This document shows positions 4,081-11,433 of a DNA stretch of 17,214 nucleotides, in pieces (position 1 is the stretch's first letter; every line of letters begins with the position of its first letter). Location: UHGV virus genome UHGV-0135926; one strand, written 5' to 3'. A model generated the notes under the pieces. The model searched no databases, was not told the origin of the DNA, and saw only the letters and a program-made list of their open reading frames with translations. This DNA is from a virus. Both the position numbers and the translations under genes were made by a program.

Positions 4081-4908
4081 TTAGGCTTTAAAGTTACCGA
4101 TGAAAGTTTCCACTGATTCGCCTTCGAACTTGCTGATCAGCAAATCGCGGAATTCGTTGGCGATCGCTTCTTCCTGAGCTTCAAGTTGGACAATGCGCAG
4201 AACAAAGCAGGGTTCATCGCTAGTCAGCAGGCTGTTACGCAAGCTAAAGCGGCGTTCGCCCAGGCCTTCATACGGCATACATTTGAACTCGAACGCCACA
4301 GGCATTACGTCTTTGCTGCTTGCTTCAACGCTTTGCATCAGCGATTTTTTACCAGCGAAATCACCAGTTTCATGGTCCTGCTGTGTTGCTTGCTGAATAG
4401 TGATACGACGCACAGCCTGAGCCGCCTGGGAAATCTGCATCGTATTGCCATCAGCATCAAACGCCAGCAGGTAATCGCTCCAGTCTTCCAGCCATTCAGC
4501 AATTTGCTTTTGTTTCAGACGTTGACCATCGATCTGCAGTAACGCGCGGAACGGGGCGGTTTTCTTCAGGGTGATTGAAGCAACGTTATCGGCGTGACCA
4601 GGATTATCCAGGGTGCCGATGTTGAACACTGAACGGGCGGTCATGTTGTCAGCGTCAATGAAGCAACGAGCTGGTTCACTGTCGCTGGCGTAACCTTTAG
4701 AATAACGTGCGAAGTCGTCAATACTGGTTGTGGTCATTTCGCCACGAAAGCGGAAACGTTCCAGAGAAAAGCGCTCGAGGCTTTCAACGCCAGTACCCTC
4801 TGGCAGTAATGCGGTCGGGCAAGCCAGGCCATGAATATCATTCAGGTGATAACCGGAAAGAACCAGGTCTTTGACCTGCTTGAAGGTACCGCTGTCTAAC
4901 TGAGACAT
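4081..4908 (-). CDS. yfdQ: YfdQ-family protein (DUF2303-like)
   Basis: 275 aa; ATG at 4906-4908 with AAGGA about 8 nt upstream. Sequence, size and gene order match the CPS-53 yfdP-yfdQ-yfdR arrangement as I recall it. Confidence 0.7.
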   Translation of the reverse strand: MSQLDSGTFKQVKDLVLSGYHLNDIHGLACPTALLPEGTGVESLERFSLERFRFRGEMTTTSIDDFARYSKGYASDSEPARCFIDADNMTARSVFNIGTLDNPGHADNVASITLKKTAPFRALLQIDGQRLKQKQIAEWLEDWSDYLLAFDADGNTMQISQAAQAVRRITIQQATQQDHETGDFAGKKSLMQSVEASSKDVMPVAFEFKCMPYEGLGERRFSLRNSLLTSDEPCFVLRIVQLEAQEEAIANEFRDLLISKFEGESVETFIGNFKA

Positions 4909-4964: not shown

Positions 4965-5336
4965 TCACTGAGCCGCTTTAAGCTTTCCATCCACCGCGCC
5001 AGTGATCCCGAACAGCTGACCCTGATCTTCCTGCAGGATGGTGAGCTTCCCGCCTTTGTTGACCCACATCGGGGTTTCGGTTGTGTCCTCTTCGGAGGCT
5101 TTACCACGCGGTGTTGGGGTGCTGTAGTTCAGCTTGTGCTTGATCTTGACGCGCTTCTCTTCAACGGAATTACCCATGCGCTCAAAATCAAAGGTGAGGA
5201 CTACTTTGCCTTTGTTGCCGTTGTTCAGAACGCCAAGCGCGGTGGTGTTAAGTGCTGCCGCGATTTTGTTCATGAACACGCCGGCATCCAGTTCGCCAAG
5301 AAAATCTGGCACTACGGTCATGCGGTCATTACTCAT
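4965..5336 (-). CDS. First gene of the leftward operon; YfdP-like by size and position (123 aa), function unknown
   Basis: ATG at 5334-5336 with GAGGG 7 nt upstream. Not arginine-rich, so not an N-type antiterminator. Confidence 0.6.
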   Translation of the reverse strand: MSNDRMTVVPDFLGELDAGVFMNKIAAALNTTALGVLNNGNKGKVVLTFDFERMGNSVEEKRVKIKHKLNYSTPTPRGKASEEDTTETPMWVNKGGKLTILQEDQGQLFGITGAVDGKLKAAQ

Positions 5337-5466
5337 GGTTTTACCCTCGTTAAGGCGGCTGCCACCGCCGAACTTTCTCCATACTCAACTGGAAGCGCAC
5401 TCCGCTTGTTTCACACCTGTCACCCATAACTGGTAAGTGAAGGAGTGCGCTTTCATGTTGTGATCT

Positions 5467-5517
5467 GAAAAAGGCTGGCGGTTACCGGAAATACACGGGA
5501 AAACACCGGTCCGCCAG
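5467..5517 (-). terminator. Intrinsic terminator in the pL leader (tL-like)
   Basis: Minus-strand RNA: CUGGCGG-ACCGG-(17-nt loop)-CCGGU-AA-CCGCCAG followed by CCUUUUUC. That is 12 bp of stem with a 2-nt bulge. Plus-strand coordinates 5475-5517 for the stem and 5467-5474 for the U-tract. Confidence 0.6.
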
Positions 5518-5797
5518 AACATGGAGTTACTTGTTATTGCTTTAGCCTGCTTTTAACCACATCAGGCGCGGTGGTAGGTATCTTCGGGCGGGGGCCAGTG
5601 ACTAGCTGGCATCCCTACGGTACTTTTCACCGACAACCGCGGGTTAGACGGTTCCGTTTCGTCGGATAGAGCTGTCGACGCTGGTAGTCACTCCAGCCCG
5701 TAACCCCTCCCGAAGACACCTGTCAGCGAATCATCCGGTTATTCATACGTCACCGGCGGCTACTTCGTGGGCGTCCTGCCTGTTCGCTGTTTCGTAT

Positions 5798-5831
5798 AGG
5801 TACATTATGTACCTTGAGGGTACATTGTCAA
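5798..5831 (-). promoter_or_regulatory. pL promoter with overlapping OL operator(s)
   Basis: On the minus strand: TTGACA (plus 5826-5831), 16-nt spacer, CATAAT (plus 5804-5809). A perfect 19-bp palindrome ATGTACC-ttgag-GGTACAT (5807-5825) overlaps the spacer and -10, with an extra half-site forming AGGTACAT-t-ATGTACCT (5798-5814). Confidence 0.6.
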
Positions 5832-5833
5832 GG

Positions 5834-5859
5834 ATAAAAAAACCTGCCGAAGCAGGTTT
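5834..5859 (-). terminator. Terminator of the repressor transcript
   Basis: Stem aaacctgc (5840-5847) / gcaggttt (5852-5859), loop cgaa, followed on the minus strand by a run of seven U (plus-strand A 5836-5842). Sits between the cI stop (5871) and the pL -35. Confidence 0.65.
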
Positions 5860-5870
5860 GTGATGATGGG

Positions 5871-6545
5871 TTAAGGCTTATGCCTGTGCCGTCGTGGTTT
5901 TCCTGAGAAAACAACGGTGCCAATAATCGAGCAATTACCATTGATCCTAATATATGGCTCTGGCCAGTTGGCGTTTAAAGCTTTAAGAAACTTTTCGCCA
6001 CTATCTTCTATTAATCGTTTAAACGTCGTTTCGCCAGAATCATGCATTAAAGCAATAACATCATCGCCATGAGAAGCTGCAACCTCTGGATCTACAAAAA
6101 TCATATCGCCAGGACGATACTCATCGATCATTGAATCACCAATGACGCGTAAGATATAAGTCATTGGCCCGCACGGAACGGGACAAGGATATGTTTCTAC
6201 ACTACTCAAATCTACCTCTGCATAACCAGCATCCGTCCATGCTCCGGCTTGCACCCAGGATATAACCGGGACCATCGTAATTGATCTTTTAACGTCTGAA
6301 ACGTCGGGTGATTTAGCAATGTTGGTAGTTTGATGTTCGGTATCTAGCCAACCTTGAGGCAAGTCAAAACATTTTTCGATATGCCTTGCCATAGCGTCAC
6401 CAATACCTTTGGTGGCACCTTCACCCATAAACCGGCTGGTTTGTGTAGGTTCACGATCGATCATGTTAGCGAAGTAGCTATTACCCCCAACACCATCTCT
6501 CAATTTTCGGGCGTTTAATCGCCTGATTTCCTGGATAGTTTTCAT
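5871..6545 (-). CDS. cI: CI-type repressor with C-terminal LexA-like S24 peptidase domain (SOS-cleavable)
   Basis: C-terminal half resembles P22 C2 / lambda CI (ISWVQAG…, RVIGDSM with catalytic Ser, TFKRL with catalytic Lys, …INGNCSIIGTVV). N-terminal XRE-like HTH. ATG at 6543-6545 chosen over the track's TTG at 6560 because the putative pRM places the TSS on that ATG. Confidence 0.85.
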   Translation of the reverse strand: MKTIQEIRRLNARKLRDGVGGNSYFANMIDREPTQTSRFMGEGATKGIGDAMARHIEKCFDLPQGWLDTEHQTTNIAKSPDVSDVKRSITMVPVISWVQAGAWTDAGYAEVDLSSVETYPCPVPCGPMTYILRVIGDSMIDEYRPGDMIFVDPEVAASHGDDVIALMHDSGETTFKRLIEDSGEKFLKALNANWPEPYIRINGNCSIIGTVVFSGKPRRHRHKP

Positions 6546-6551
6546 CAGCAA

Positions 6552-6630
6552 ATTAAACAATGTGTACCTCTATGGTACAAGTACCTTGTGGGTTCATTTC
6601 TTTCGTGTAATATGTACACAGGAGGTACAT
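6552..6630. promoter_or_regulatory. OR region: three 19-bp operators, pRM (leftward) and pR (rightward)
   Basis: Operators GTGTACC-tctat-GGTACAA (6562-6580), AAGTACC-ttgtg-GGTTCAT (6579-6597), ATGTACA-cagga-GGTACAT (6612-6630). pRM on minus: TTGTAC (6575-6580), 17 nt, TTTAAT (6552-6557), 6 nt, then ATG. pR on plus: TTGTGG (6586-6591), 16 nt, TAATAT (6608-6613). Confidence 0.55.
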
Positions 6631-6633
6631 ATT

Positions 6634-6834
6634 ATGAAAGAGTATTGGGACTCTTTAACTAAAGAGCAGCAAGGCGAATTAGCTGGAAGCGTAGGTTCCA
6701 CGCCTGGCTACCTGCGTTTAGTTTTCAATGGCTACAAAAAGGCAGGTTTTTCCTTGGCTAAAAAGCTGGAGGAAACAACTGCTGGGATTATCAGCAAATC
6801 TGATCTTCGTCCTGACATTTACCCTAAACAGTAG
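6634..6834 (+). CDS. cro: Cro-like / YdaS-like small HTH regulator
   Basis: 66 aa from ATG 6634 with GGAGG 8 nt upstream; the track's upstream extension lacks an RBS and overlaps the operators. Ends …LRPDIYPKQ, typical of YdaS/Cro-like proteins. Divergent from the repressor. Confidence 0.75.
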   Translation: MKEYWDSLTKEQQGELAGSVGSTPGYLRLVFNGYKKAGFSLAKKLEETTAGIISKSDLRPDIYPKQ

Positions 6835-6877: not shown

Positions 6878-7429
6878 GTGGGTAACGAACCTATTTGGAA
6901 AGTCGAACGTCAGCCAGCCTGGCTGGTGGCGGCGATAAAAAAAACGATCACCGATCTACCTGGTGGTTATGCCGAGGCGGCGGAATGGTTGGGCGTGACA
7001 GAGAACGCATTGTTTAACCGCCTTCGTGTTGACGGCGATCAGATCTTCCCGCTGGGCTGGGCAATGGTTTTACAACGTGCTGGTGGTTCAACTCATATCG
7101 CTGATGCCGTTGCGCGCCATTCTCAGGGCGTATTTGTACCGCTGGCAGATGTTGATGATCTGGATAACGCCGATATCAACCAGCGCCTGATGGAGTCCAT
7201 CGAATGGATAGGCCGTCATTCTAATTTTGTACGTAAAGCCACGGCTGATGGGGTGATTGACGCAGATGAGCGCGCTCAGATTGAGGAAAACAGCTATCAG
7301 GTTATTGCGAAGTTCCAGGAGCACGTAGCGCTTCTTTATCGAGTTTTTTGTGTCGCTGAAAAGAGTGACGCCCGCGAGTGTGCAGCTCCGGGCGCCTTGG
7401 CGAACAACTCTTCGAGTATGGAGAAATAA
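6878..7429 (+). CDS. YdaT-like protein at the CII position
   Basis: Start chosen at GTG 6878 (AGGGG 6 nt upstream); the frame has no Met before this point that does not overlap cro. Follows the YdaS-like gene as in the Rac prophage ydaS-ydaT pair. Confidence 0.55.
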   Translation: MGNEPIWKVERQPAWLVAAIKKTITDLPGGYAEAAEWLGVTENALFNRLRVDGDQIFPLGWAMVLQRAGGSTHIADAVARHSQGVFVPLADVDDLDNADINQRLMESIEWIGRHSNFVRKATADGVIDADERAQIEENSYQVIAKFQEHVALLYRVFCVAEKSDARECAAPGALANNSSSMEK

Positions 7430-7781: not shown

Positions 7782-8628
7782 ATTAACCGGCTACGTATGG
7801 GATGGTTGCGCGGCGTCGGGCATGAAGTTGTCTAGTGTCGCGATCATGGCCCGCCTCGCTGATTTCAGCAGCGATGAGGGCGTGTGCTGGCCGTCCATTG
7901 AAACTATTGCTCGCCAGCTTGGCGCAGGGCCGAGCACTATCAGAACGGCAATCGCTAAGCTTGAAAAAGATGGCTGGCTCACGCGTACACAGCGCCGTAA
8001 TGGTAACCGTAATGCTTCGAACGTGTACCGCCTGAATGTGGCGAAACTTCAGGCTGCCGCATTTTCTCAACTGTCAGATTCTGACACGTCAAAATCTGAC
8101 GCATCAAAATTTGACGCCTCAAAAACTGACCCGTCGAAATCCGTCAAAAACGGCGGTTTTGACCCGTCAGAATCTGGCGGGGATCCGTCAGTAAAATCAA
8201 AACAAGATCCACAAGTAACTTCAAAACCCTCTTGTCCGGTTGCGGCGCAACCAGACCCTGAAGTCGTGATTACTGATCAGGCAATTTTGGTTCTGACCCA
8301 TTTGAACAAGATCAGCGGATCCCGGTATCAGAAATCAAAAACATCCCTGGAGAACATCCGTGCCCGACTGCGTGAGGGATACAGCGTTGCAGACCTGCAA
8401 CTGGTTATCGACCTGAAGCATGAGCACTGGCACGAGAACGACGAGCAGTACCAGTACATGCGCCCGGAAACGCTGTTCGGCCCGAAGAAATTCGAGAGCT
8501 ATCTGCAAAGCGCTACCCGCTGGGAGCAGAAGGGACGGCCTAAACGCGCTGACTGGGGTGCGAAAAAGCGCGATGTGATGGCTTTTGGTCCGGTTGATAC
8601 AACGATTCCAGAGGGGTTCAGAGGATGA
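7771..8628 (+). CDS. Replication initiator (lambda O-like role): N-terminal HTH, iteron-encoded repeat linker, conserved phage C-terminal domain
   Basis: 285 aa; the internal peptide repeat SDSDTSKSDASKFDASKTDPSKS is encoded by the iteron array. Position downstream of the CII analogue. Stop overlaps the next start (ATGA). Confidence 0.8.
   Translation: MSTKLTGYVWDGCAASGMKLSSVAIMARLADFSSDEGVCWPSIETIARQLGAGPSTIRTAIAKLEKDGWLTRTQRRNGNRNASNVYRLNVAKLQAAAFSQLSDSDTSKSDASKFDASKTDPSKSVKNGGFDPSESGGDPSVKSKQDPQVTSKPSCPVAAQPDPEVVITDQAILVLTHLNKISGSRYQKSKTSLENIRARLREGYSVADLQLVIDLKHEHWHENDEQYQYMRPETLFGPKKFESYLQSATRWEQKGRPKRADWGAKKRDVMAFGPVDTTIPEGFRG
8071..8198. repeat. Origin-type iteron array inside the replication gene (15-bp period)
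   Basis: Tandem TGACACGTCAAAATC (8082-8096), TGACGCATCAAAATT (8097-8111), TGACGCCTCAAAAAC (8112-8126), TGACCCGTCGAAATC (8127-8141), then degenerate copies to 8198. Followed by an A-rich stretch. Confidence 0.7.
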
Positions 8629-9506
8629 CGTTAAACAAATATTGCCAGTCGCTGGCGGAACTACGTAGCCAACCAGCCCACGAATTGAAAGAAGTTGGCG
8701 ATCAGTGGCGAACACCGGATCTGCTTTTTTGGGGGATCAACGCGCTATTTGGTCCATTAGTTCTGGACTTGTTTGCTGACGCCGACAACGCGAAATGCCC
8801 GGCATGGTACACCGCCGAAGATAACGCGCTGACGCAGGACTGGTCTGAACGTCTGGCAGAACTGGGTGGCGCTGGCTATGGCAACCCACCGTATAGCCGT
8901 TCGCAGTACCACGAGAAACAGGCGATCACTGGTATGACGCACATCATGAAATACGCAGCAGCCCAGCGCGAGAAGGGCGGTCGCTATGTATTCCTGATAA
9001 AAGCCGCGCCGAGTGAAACGTGGTGGCCGGAAGATGCCGATCACATTGTATTCATTCGCGGGCGCATTGGGTTCGATCTGCCTGTGTGGTTTGTACCTGC
9101 TGACGAAAAACAGAAACCCACCAGCGCGTTTTTTGCCGGTGCCATAGCTGTATTCGATAAGTCGTGGCGTGGTGAGCGGTTCAGCTATATCAACCGCACA
9201 GAACTGGAGGCAAAAGGTCGGGAATTTATGGCGCTGGCTCAATTCGCTGTTGGTAAAGAGCAAACAATTGCAGTGCGGACAGCCCAGGAACCAGTAATAC
9301 CATCGGAAACTGAGTCACGTATCTGGCCTCTAGAGGTTGGTCTGGTGTTTAACCAGGTGGAAGGCGTTGACGTATTGAGTGAGGCTCAGCAGAACAAGCT
9401 GAAAGCCAACATCAATCAACTCTGGCTGGAACGAACGGCCACCAGCGAAATTATTACAATTGCGCGTGGTCTTGTTGGCAGCATGCAGGGGGTAACCCAT
9501 GCGTGA
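8625..9506 (+). CDS. Phage Dam-family DNA N6-adenine methyltransferase
   Basis: 293 aa; catalytic NPPY motif (…GYGNPPYSRS…). Translationally coupled to both neighbours (ATGA at 8625, 8-nt overlap with the next gene). Confidence 0.8.
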   Translation: MTLNKYCQSLAELRSQPAHELKEVGDQWRTPDLLFWGINALFGPLVLDLFADADNAKCPAWYTAEDNALTQDWSERLAELGGAGYGNPPYSRSQYHEKQAITGMTHIMKYAAAQREKGGRYVFLIKAAPSETWWPEDADHIVFIRGRIGFDLPVWFVPADEKQKPTSAFFAGAIAVFDKSWRGERFSYINRTELEAKGREFMALAQFAVGKEQTIAVRTAQEPVIPSETESRIWPLEVGLVFNQVEGVDVLSEAQQNKLKANINQLWLERTATSEIITIARGLVGSMQGVTHA

Positions 9507-11433
9507 GATTATCGTTGATAACTTTGCTGGTGGCGGTGGCGCATCAACGGGTATTGAACTGGCGATCGGGCGCAGCGTGGATATTGCGATAAACCACGAC
9601 GAAAACGCCATTGCGATGCACAAGACGAACCACCCGGACACACTGCATTATTGTGAATCCGTATTTGACGTGGATCCGGTAGCCGCCACCGGAGGTCATC
9701 CTGTCGGACTGGCATGGTTTAGCCCGGACTGCCGACACTTCTCGAAGGCAAAAGGCGCAAAGCCTGTGAAAAAAGAGATACGCGGTCTGGCCTGGATTGT
9801 TCTGCGTTGGGCACTGGCAAAGCGACCGCGCGTGATGATGCTGGAGAACGTGGAAGAGTTCAAAACGTGGGGACCGCTGCTGGCCGATGAAATGCGTCCG
9901 GATCCTGCCCGCACTGGCGAAACATTCAATGCATTTGTCGGCATGCTGTCCACTGGCATTCCTGCTGATCACCCGGCACTGGCTGAGGTTTGTGAGTTTC
10001 TGTCTATCGAAAGAGGTAGCGAGCAGGCACAAAAGCTGGTGGATGGGCTGGGATATGATGTTGATTATCGCGAACTACGTGCGTGTGATTACGGCGCGCC
10101 GACGATCCGCAAACGCTTCTTCATGGTTATGCGTTGCGATGGTTGCCCAATCCAGTGGCCTGCTATTACCCATGGGGATCCTAAGTCTCTGGAGGTGCAA
10201 AGTGGCAGGCTGATGCCATGGCGTACCGCTGCGGAATGTATCGACTGGAATATTCCGGCCCTGTCCATCTTCGACCGCAAAAAACCGCTGGCGGAGAACA
10301 CTCTGAAGCGGATCGCGCGCGGCATACAGCGCTTTGTTATCGAAAGTGCGTCGCCGTTTATTGTGAAGTGCAACCACACGAGCTCAAAAAATGCGTATGA
10401 CGCTTTTCGCGGACAGTCACTGAATGAGCCATTACAGACCATTACTAAAAAACTCGGCTACGCGTTAGCCGTTCCACACCTGACAAAATTCCGCACTGGC
10501 GCAACCGGGCAGCCCCTTACCGAACCTGTTCCGACGGTAACCGCTGGCACGTCAAAACGCCCGGGCGGGAACGGGCATGCACTCGGGATTGTTGAGGCTG
10601 CACTGACGCCATTCCTGGCGGGTAATGGTGGTAGTGAATACCAGGCGAAACCGCGCCCGCTGGATAAACCTGCTCATACCATTCTGAAGCAATCCCGAGC
10701 CTGTCTGGTTGCGCCAGTGATAGCCCGCCAGTTTGGGGCCAGCGTCGGCCACCGTGCAGACGAACCGAGCGCAACCATCACCGCTGGTGGTGGCGGTAAA
10801 TCTCAACCGGTAACGCCTACGCTGATTCAGATGGGTTATGGCGAACGACCTGGGCAAGAACCGCGTGTGCTGCGACTGGATAACCCGCTGGGGACCGTTA
10901 CTGCAGGCGGAAATAAATTTGCGACGGTGAGCGCGTTCCTGGCGAAACACTACGGCGGTAACTATACGGGGCCTGGTGTCAGTATGGATGAACCCGCGCA
11001 TTCAGTGACCACTGTCGACCATCATGCGGTAGTTGCCTCTCATCTGGTGAAACTGCGTGGAACATGCCGCGACGGGCAACGCCTTGATGTGCCAATGCCA
11101 ACAATCACTGCTGGTGGCCAACACGTGGGTGAGGTACGCACATTTCTCGAGACGTATTGCGGGGAAAGTGACGATGAATGGCTGGTAACGATCGATGGGG
11201 TTAAATACCAGATCGTTGATATCGGAATGCGCATGTTGCAGCCGCATGAACTCTACAAAGCGCAGGGCTTCCCGGATGGTTACGTTATTGATCAGGACTA
11301 CCGTGGAAATCGCTATGCAAAAGATAAGCAGGTAGCCCGCTGCGGTAATGCGGTACCACCACCATTCGCCAGGGCGCTGGTGGAGGCAAATCTTCCGGAA
11401 CTGTGTGCAGTGCAACAGCAGGAGGTGGCATGA
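9499..11433 (+). CDS. DNA cytosine-5 methyltransferase with a long repeat-containing variable region
   Basis: 644 aa. Motif I FAGGGG, PC-type motif SPDCRHFS, motif VI MLENV, motif VIII TIRKRFFMV, motif IX LQPHELYKAQGFPDGY, motif X RCGNAVPPPF. Between VIII and IX there are seven tandem units with core h-[DNT]-[EKNV]-P-x-x-[TS]-[IV]-T. Confidence 0.85.
   Translation: MREIIVDNFAGGGGASTGIELAIGRSVDIAINHDENAIAMHKTNHPDTLHYCESVFDVDPVAATGGHPVGLAWFSPDCRHFSKAKGAKPVKKEIRGLAWIVLRWALAKRPRVMMLENVEEFKTWGPLLADEMRPDPARTGETFNAFVGMLSTGIPADHPALAEVCEFLSIERGSEQAQKLVDGLGYDVDYRELRACDYGAPTIRKRFFMVMRCDGCPIQWPAITHGDPKSLEVQSGRLMPWRTAAECIDWNIPALSIFDRKKPLAENTLKRIARGIQRFVIESASPFIVKCNHTSSKNAYDAFRGQSLNEPLQTITKKLGYALAVPHLTKFRTGATGQPLTEPVPTVTAGTSKRPGGNGHALGIVEAALTPFLAGNGGSEYQAKPRPLDKPAHTILKQSRACLVAPVIARQFGASVGHRADEPSATITAGGGGKSQPVTPTLIQMGYGERPGQEPRVLRLDNPLGTVTAGGNKFATVSAFLAKHYGGNYTGPGVSMDEPAHSVTTVDHHAVVASHLVKLRGTCRDGQRLDVPMPTITAGGQHVGEVRTFLETYCGESDDEWLVTIDGVKYQIVDIGMRMLQPHELYKAQGFPDGYVIDQDYRGNRYAKDKQVARCGNAVPPPFARALVEANLPELCAVQQQEVA

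Follow-up and report, generated by a model that had tools for sequence, protein, structure and literature searches.

The stretch of DNA considered here, referred to throughout as the window, comprises 17,214 nucleotides (nt) of the UHGV virus genome UHGV-0135926, and the element in question is the short interval directly downstream of its cI-type repressor gene, where a first-pass annotation had placed a leftward promoter, pL, and its operator region, OL. The features on which the argument turns are these:

5788–5804: predicted operator OL2, reading TGTACC-TATAC-GAAACA on the minus strand, with two mismatches and one weak half-site.
5804–5809, minus strand: the −10 hexamer of pL, CATAAT, behind a 16-base-pair (bp) spacer.
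5808–5824: predicted operator OL1, the perfect 17-bp palindrome TGTACC-TTGAG-GGTACA with no mismatch, which fills the pL spacer and overlaps the first −10 bases.
5826–5831, minus strand: the −35 hexamer of pL, TTGACA, a sigma-70 match.
5833–5859, minus strand: an intrinsic terminator of the cI (pRM) transcript, found by a terminator scan and as an inverted repeat.
5871–6545, minus strand: the cI-type repressor gene, 224 amino acids (aa), with an N-terminal helix-turn-helix (HTH) domain and a C-terminal S24 autopeptidase/dimerisation domain.
6634–6834, plus strand: a cro-like gene, 66 aa, with a YmfT/YdaS-like HTH, divergent from cI.

The predicted pL promoter, TTGACA-16-CATAAT, scores 11 of 12 and is the sole sigma-70-type match between 5200 and 7000, an interval in which 2.8 weaker promoter matches would be expected. 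Transcription from it probably starts near A5797 on the minus strand, a position inferred from the usual distance of 7 nt. Immediately upstream, the cI terminator has the stem AAACCUGC/GCAGGUUU (arms 5840–5847 and 5852–5859) closed by a UUCG loop and followed by a U-run that stops 1–2 nt short of the pL −35 hexamer. Among homologous loci this stem varies on both arms (AACCTGC/GCAGGTT, AGCCCGC/GCGGGTT, GAGCCTGCG/CGCGGGCT) with no change in the T-run. Between the end of the cI stop codon at 5871 and the promoter, the list of open reading frames (ORFs) of the window has no entry. The statement in the first-pass annotation that terminator, pL and OL are packed into about 60 bp with no rex- or sieB-like gene is thus correct.

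Two perfect inverted repeats had been described at this site, and both exist as described. The first is the 19-bp palindrome ATGTACC-TTGAG-GGTACAT at 5807–5825, whose 7-nt arms (5807–5813 and 5819–5825) are 100% complementary with 5 nt between them. The second is the 8-1-8 palindrome AGGTACAT-T-ATGTACCT at 5798–5814, with fully (100%) complementary arms at 5798–5805 and 5807–5814 and 1 nt between. The 19-bp repeat had been said to lie over the −10 element; an overlap there is, but the repeat fills the 16-bp spacer and touches just the first 3 nt of the −10. The rarity of such palindromes was considered as proof and rejected, perfect 7-N-7 palindromes being only about 2-fold enriched: the 17-kb window holds 11 of the form 7-N(1–5)-7 against 5.6 ± 2.6 in 300 dinucleotide-preserving shuffles, and repeats this common by chance make palindromy alone weak evidence. 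The feature that stands above chance is the repeated use of one half-site. ATGTACC occurs in 5 copies in the window against 1.32 expected, a count reached in 2 of 200 shuffles, and the full pattern TGTACC-N5-GGTACA, with at most 2 mismatches, finds 5 sites against 0.42 expected, which none of 200 shuffles reaches. All five (5788–5804, 5808–5824, 6563–6579, 6580–6596 and 6613–6629) lie within the two intergenic regions that border the repressor gene.

Three of these sites fall between cI and cro, where six half-sites make up three 17-bp sites of a predicted right operator region, OR, described here with pR and pRM hexamers that were assigned by inspection only:

6563–6579: predicted operator OR3, TGTACC-TCTAT-GGTACA, perfect, over the predicted pRM spacer.
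6580–6596: predicted operator OR2, AGTACC-TTGTG-GGTTCA, overlapping the predicted pR −35 and abutting the predicted pRM −35.
6613–6629: predicted operator OR1, TGTACA-CAGGA-GGTACA, covering the predicted start of pR together with the Shine-Dalgarno sequence of cro.

It had been claimed that ATGTACC recurs three times in OR and that this heptamer defines the specificity of the repressor. The exact 7-mer is present there only once (6624–6630), and it is the 6-mer TGTACC/GGTACA that occurs three times (6563, 6574 and 6624). OR does point to the same specificity as OL, but the conserved unit is the 6-mer in a 6-5-6 arrangement, and the flanking A is common without being universal, OR3 being flanked as TTGTACC and GTGTACC. 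In 65 distinct homologous OR sequences the half-sites are constrained, the OR3 spacer is hypervariable and all three sites are kept; OR2, which reads TGAACC-N5-GGTACT on the cI strand in this set, directly abuts OR3, and OR1 follows 16 bp beyond OR2. The OR1 spacer is partly fixed (GGAGG is kept) because the cro ribosome-binding site lies within it. A LexA box in OR1 was also considered, but CTGT-N8-TACA, compared by eye, is no match.

The assignment at pL itself draws mostly on comparison among homologues. Loci encoding relatives of the repressor were fetched (135), and the 102 with at least 74% cI identity were used for the pL footprint. The string TTGACA[A/G]TGTACC is found downstream of the cI stop codon in 101 of the 102 (cI 74–100% identical), and these loci provide 73 distinct sequences, to which the column statistics that follow refer. 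Outside this anchor, G(G/A)TACATAATGTACC (5813–5799) is invariant apart from one G/A position, at 2.0 bits, and all six positions of the −10 hexamer are invariant. The spacer at 5818–5814, by comparison, retains just 0.24–0.93 bits per column, and the two 5-bp spacers overall 0.2–0.9 bits. The half-sites of OL1 are thus invariant save for a single G/A position (62:11). OL2 has an invariant proximal half-site, a variable spacer and a conserved distal G.AAC(A); in coordinates, 5798–5795 vary and G.AACA is held at 5793 and 5791–5788. The sequence flanking pL/OL varies among the same set. A symmetric dimer is expected to leave this signature at its site, with half-sites under constraint on either side of a free centre.

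More distant homologues add a second line of comparison. Repressors from Proteus (59% identical) and Salinicola (53%) have the recognition segment REPTQxSR and sites of the form TGTACC-N5-GGTACA. Sites at the equivalent promoters are of the type TTAACC-N5-GGTTAA for the Kushneria homologues (44%, VEPPAASRV), and homologues from Acinetobacter (41%, KGQSQTSQ) have (A/T)TTACC-N5-GGTAA. In these distant homologues the 6-5-6 geometry and the inner ACC...GGT are kept and the outer bases change with the recognition helix, a co-variation at fixed geometry that is hard to explain unless this repressor reads these sites.

The domain composition of the protein is in keeping with such a role. Its C-terminal half matches Pfam Peptidase_S24 (E=6e-25) and is most similar to the C-terminal domain of lambda cI (1f39, E=4e-11), and inspection of the translation suggests a candidate cleavage site at Ala100-Gly101, with Ser138 (GDSM) and Lys176 (FKRL) fitting the catalytic dyad. 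An N-terminal profile built from 10 homologues matches phage repressor DNA-binding domains, namely 5D50 over the full domain (E=6e-8) and 7NKV (E=2e-5), and 3 of the 10 homologues give HTH_3/HTH_31 matches. It is on this body of independent comparative evidence that the first-pass reading of a pL/OL with GTAC-core half-sites appears sound, and 5788–5831 very probably serves as pL/OL in a lambdoid prophage whose immunity is of the SfV/e14 (YmfK) type. The placement of OL1 at 5808–5824 can be held with still greater confidence. OL2 at 5788–5804 is probably a second, weaker canonical operator; it spans the last −10 base and +1 to about +10, with its centre 20 bp from that of OL1, and it is less certain, since the 5' flank of a separate RNA module, considered below, covers part of its distal half.

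The first-pass annotation had described an additional half-site that makes a second palindrome, 8-1-8, at 5798–5814, which shares the central half-site with the 19-bp repeat. Were this register correct, the second palindrome would itself be a binding site, two dimers would compete for, or straddle, three half-sites, and no site would exist at 5788–5804. The palindrome is real, and its 7-1-7 core GGTACAT-T-ATGTACC (5799–5813) is a perfect inverted repeat conserved in 73 of 73 sequences. Its half-sites, however, stand tail-to-tail (GGTACA..TGTACC) across a 3-bp gap, whereas the five canonical sites and those of the distant homologues stand head-to-head across 5 bp, and the two arrangements cannot be equivalent to a symmetric HTH dimer. 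The invariant centre coincides with the −10 hexamer, which explains its conservation without a protein site, and the outer pair, 5798/5814, is variable in homologues. A similar junction palindrome, although with another spacing, arises trivially where OR3 joins OR2 (GGTACAAGTACC). The conserved G.AAC at 5793–5789, at the canonical distance from the half-site at 5799–5804, is left unexplained by this register. It is therefore improbable that the 8-1-8 repeat is itself a site; it is best read, on this comparison, as the place where OL1, the −10 core and OL2 meet, and the second operator is better placed at 5788–5804.

Two further explanations dispense with a repressor altogether, and each is very unlikely. 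Since every half-site contains the palindromic tetramer GTAC and the window encodes two DNA methyltransferases, the repeats could be targets of DNA modification or restriction. GTAC is neither depleted nor unusual in the window, however (51 copies versus 39 in shuffles), conservation reaches beyond it to the flanking T and CC and to the fixed 6-5-6 geometry, the sites lie only beside the repressor gene, and the distant homologues lose GTAC (TTAACC, TTACC) along with the change in helix while the geometry is kept. That the repeats act as nucleic-acid hairpins, for example by extending the cI terminator or forming a cruciform, might be supposed from their position directly past the terminator, where any pRM read-through would transcribe them. 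Their arms never vary, however, and show none of the compensatory change seen in the adjacent terminator stem; the related sites OR1, OR2 and OL2 are conserved despite being too imperfect to form good hairpins; and the position relative to −35 and −10 is fixed to the base pair.

Several observations weigh against the assignment of pL/OL to a YmfK-type repressor, or at least against parts of it. The alignment anchor consists of the −35 hexamer and the first half-site, so that the constancy of these two amounts to the 101 of 102 loci that match and is not a column statistic. One homologue of cI (84% identical), in an uncultured Enterobacteriaceae metagenome-assembled genome, is without this pL arrangement; there TGTACCTATCGAACCAACTTGGTACACAG is found right past the cI stop codon, with no terminator and no TTGACA, and the locus may be a rearranged or degraded prophage. 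At OL2 the distal half, GAAACA, agrees with the consensus at just 4 of 6 positions and abuts the 5' flank of the RNA module, and its AACA part is also present in phages with other repressors, such that some of the conservation of this half may not be due to the repressor. A Pfam scan calls no HTH in the window repressor itself (N-terminal 72 residues), and the assignment of that fold depends on the profile built from homologues. No binding, footprinting or start-site data were found for SfV or e14 in a search that left the primary SfV and e14 papers outside its range. In support of OL2, its distal half is retained as GAAACA, GTTACA, GGAACG or GGAACT in loci without the downstream RNA element.

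The mechanism suggested by these sequence features, their conservation, the domain homologies and the way half-site and helix co-vary is a familiar one. A strong sigma-70 pL would fire leftward, on the minus strand, from just past the cI terminator, and a dimer of the cI-type repressor would read each 17-bp operator. A dimer on OL1 alone should exclude RNA polymerase, given that OL1 fills the spacer between −35 and −10, and one on OL2 would cover the last −10 base, +1 and the first 10 transcribed bases. The distance of 20 bp between centres, about two helical turns, would set OL1 and OL2 near the same face of the helix, and cooperative binding is possible, in which case it would act through the lambda-like C-terminal domain. 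The same repressor would read the three like sites between cI and cro, where centre spacings of 17 bp (OR3–OR2) and 33 bp (OR2–OR1) would favour pairing of OR1 with OR2. On SOS induction, RecA-stimulated self-cleavage of the repressor would free pL.

What lies downstream of pL appears to be of a different kind. About 460 nt separate the promoter from the first early-left ORF, and the first 67 nt of this leader are conserved, by blastn, in 51 phage records with different repressors. The leader contains the following:

5722–5788, minus strand: a structured RNA element of 67 nt with stems P1, P2 and P3, spanning roughly +10 to +76 of the transcript predicted for pL.
5576–5721, minus strand: a second structured domain, in which an 18-bp closing helix (GGUGUCUUCGGGAGGGG / CCCCGCCCGAAGAUACC) surrounds three hairpins.
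5468–5517, minus strand: a terminator-like hairpin, CUGGCGG...CCGCCAG followed by CCUUUUU, about 130 nt upstream of the ORF at 4965–5336.

Viral contigs were scanned for a 14-nt core of the first element and, together with the fetched loci, provided 140 distinct copies, each of which lies shortly past a promoter-like site (15–35 nt in ST64B, ZF40, mEp237, pAEv1818 and PR1) and after which homology ends sharply. RNAalifold on 49 diverse copies gives a closing stem P1, an invariant P2 of 3 bp and a hairpin P3, with double compensatory changes in 10 of 13 pairs. Paired cells make up 95%, as against 72.5% in shuffles (none of 500 reaches 95%), and the covariation score of 0.545 compares with 0.147 for shuffles and with no more than 0.13 for slid positions of the structure. 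The invariant unpaired stretches are CCCACGAAGUAGC, the loop GCAUAYGAA, and AUGA. A covariance model scores 88.7 bits on the window copy and 74 bits in the ymfJ leader of e14 in K-12. Rfam 15 has no match to the element at gathering score or at E<=10; over the whole window no family reaches its gathering score, and 5300–5900 at E<=10 gives chance-level matches only. One such hit, on the plus strand at 5807–5867, resembles STnc370 with 23.8 bits where the gathering score is 54, and was discarded as the cI terminator read backwards. A literature search on the core sequence of the element likewise gave nothing of relevance. Of 5426 complete E. coli genomes, 1811 contain the element by blastn, and none of the hits sampled carries an annotation. 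T5-like Providencia phages, which are virulent, have it in their terminal repeat. ST64B, ZF40, mEp237 and the Aeromonas pAEv1818 share it behind unrelated repressors and quite different repeats at the equivalent promoter. On this comparison the RNA element, which is found behind many unrelated repressors, may move as a module complete in itself, and the immunity module ends where OL2 does.

The function of the element may be approached by analogy. An N gene or nutL was sought past pL and not found, the 460 nt being without an ORF except for an unsupported one of 45 aa, and the window leader has no boxA-like motif. SfV, SfII and SfIV lack N, cII and cIII, and phages of the SfV type have cI and Cro (PMC3851460). 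The element shares with the put RNA of HK022 a place just past the early promoter, here about 10 nt beyond the predicted +1, in an N-less type of phage (PMC3851460), and its position and the absence of N suggest, by analogy, a possible put-like role in transcription elongation. Identity with put of the HK022 type was considered and rejected: the covariance model, with filters off, finds nothing in HK022 22000–31500, which includes putL and putR (best 8 bits, E=1.4, inside IS903), HK022 and HK639 are not among the 51 phage records matched by blastn, and the window RNA has the closing stem P1 and two hairpins whereas put consists of two tandem stem-loops without P1 (PMC9378689). A second copy downstream of pR was not found either, the 17-kb window giving one match and a next best of 10 bits (E=0.2). 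A terminator-like site follows within 600 nt of the element in 51% of contexts; the figure is 34% for an upstream control and 64% for the antisense strand. A boxA-like CGCTCTTTAACAA with a hairpin lies 10–35 nt past the element in 19 of 135 contexts (among them loci L059, L065, L099, L102, L115, L123 and L143), about 47-fold over background in copies that are mutually related, and the T5-like phage PR1 has CGCTCTTTAAAAA past the element without the hairpin. A tentative suggestion, which we regard as possible rather than probable, is that pL drives an undescribed class of phage cis-acting RNA that modifies the elongation complex in the role of N/nut or put.

The minimum free energy fold of the leader has z=−3.0. 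The second domain was recovered in 17 distinct copies, in which a conserved closing helix surrounds about 115 nt of interior sequence with two or more variants, and a consensus fold of 5 sequences has compensatory changes in 7 of 38 pairs. It has no Rfam match. These comparisons give partial support to a conserved structured element, and its separation from the first RNA element by about 250 nt in some loci makes it look like an independent module. The terminator-like hairpin is missing from a simple terminator scan because its stem has internal loops; if it does terminate, the unmodified pL transcript would be a non-coding RNA of about 325 nt and the early-left genes would need read-through.

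The gene context fits the same phage type. One further gene of the early-right side belongs with repressor and cro:

6878–7429, plus strand: a YmfL-family gene, divergent from cI (NCBIfam equivalog, E=1e-55).

The order repressor, cro, ymfL is the same in SfV and e14, and the cro-like protein has a weak Pfam YdaS_toxin match (E=8e-4, under the gathering score). The nearest annotated relatives are the Shigella phages SfV and SfIV and ymfK/ymfT/ymfL of E. coli e14, at about 77% nucleotide identity; the window's version is absent from the complete E. coli genomes searched, and the top genome match is a Kluyvera prophage (98% protein identity). On the early-left side the first ORF (4965–5336, minus strand) encodes 123 aa without a family match, as one member of a pair like sb37/sb36 of ST64B, and 4081–4908 (minus strand), likewise sb37/sb36-like, encodes a DUF2303 (YfdQ-like) protein (Pfam E=2e-65). 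The early-right operon includes two overlapping DNA methyltransferase genes, 8625–9506 and 9499–11433 (plus strand), whose products are a Dam-like N6-adenine methyltransferase (Pfam Dam, E=1e-43) and a protein of 644 aa that contains a C5-cytosine methylase domain (E=5e-20). Small RNAs (sRNAs) are known from this neighbourhood as well: a 2026 paper puts svsR, a 77-nt sRNA, opposite the cI 3' end of an SfV-like prophage (the corresponding part of the window is 5871–5950), a placing founded on 58% identity to e14 co293 (PMC12803456). As an explanation of pL/OL they were set aside, since they sit at the cI 3' end on the other strand or near the attachment site (PMC12803456).

If the assignments made here hold, the comparative evidence would define both an operator, TGTACC-N5-GGTACA, and a pL/OL architecture for the YmfK/SfV-cI family, which includes a prophage of E. 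coli K-12 and Shigella serotype-converting phages. Immunity groups would become predictable from sequence, and the homologues offer a natural series of helix and half-site variants at fixed geometry for studies of specificity. The leader RNA could matter more, as a strongly covarying and unannotated element at the early-left 5' end that one in three complete E. coli genomes and many N-less phage lineages contain, and it makes the control of early transcription in N-less lambdoid phages other than HK022 testable in K-12. Should its suggested role prove true, pL/OL would form the front end, specific to the immunity type, of a portable cassette joining promoter and antiterminator.

Among known systems the closest are SfV and e14. 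[quoted passage not shown] SfV and e14 share the layout, from the terminator through TTGACA, ATGTACC-N5-GATACAT and AATGTACC-N5-GAAACA to the RNA element; SfV OR has the same three sites, and OL and OR of SfV and OL of e14 carry TGTACC/G(G/A)TACA at matching positions. They differ from the window in nucleotide sequence (about 77% identity) and in their spacers, and OL1, a perfect palindrome in the window, has one G-to-A change in both SfV and e14. They also differ in the early-left genes past the leader, which are ST64B-like sb37/sb36 in the window, orf33 in SfV and ymfJ in e14, a difference that places a mosaic joint within or just past the leader. The SfV GenBank record (U82619.2) annotates only OR, as a 'putative operator region', and leaves pL/OL unmarked, and the K-12 (MG1655) record has no annotation between ymfK and ymfJ. 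YmfK is known as an SOS-sensitive repressor (PMC8249747).

Two other systems resemble the window in part. The closest solved relative of the N-terminal DNA-binding domain is Rep of the Salmonella phage SPC32H (PDB 5D50), which binds palindromic sites (PMC9638917) but differs from the window repressor in that it has no S24 domain, is a tetramer and is inactivated by an antirepressor and not by self-cleavage (PMC9638917). The operators around pL of HK022 are also GTAC-cored (TGTAC-TATTG-GTAC and TGAAC-TTTAA-GTACA; NC_002166 27500–31500, minus strand, at about 830–880 of that segment), although their half-site spacing is 2 bp shorter than in the window. Only the S24 domain of HK022 cI aligns with the window repressor and its DNA-binding domain is unrelated, so the shared GTAC looks coincidental or convergent. 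HK022, which has no N protein, is also alike in that a structured RNA about 70 nt long begins a few nt at most from the start of pL (PMC9378689).

The comparison with lambda is instructive for the architecture as a whole. The predicted operators are, as in lambda, 17-bp pseudo-palindromes that lie over promoter hexamers, OR is tripartite between the divergent cI and cro genes, the repressor joins an HTH N-terminal domain to an S24/cI-type C-terminal domain, and a terminator insulates pL from the pRM transcript. The operator sequence itself is unrelated to that of lambda, for which the consensus is TATCACCGCCAGTGGTA. Unlike in lambda, no rexA/rexB lies between cI and OL, OR2 and OR3 abut directly, and two OL sites are detectable in the window where lambda has three. 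Judged by these likenesses, the pL/OL of the window is an ordinary, well-defined lambda-type switch, as predicted here for the YmfK/SfV repressor family.

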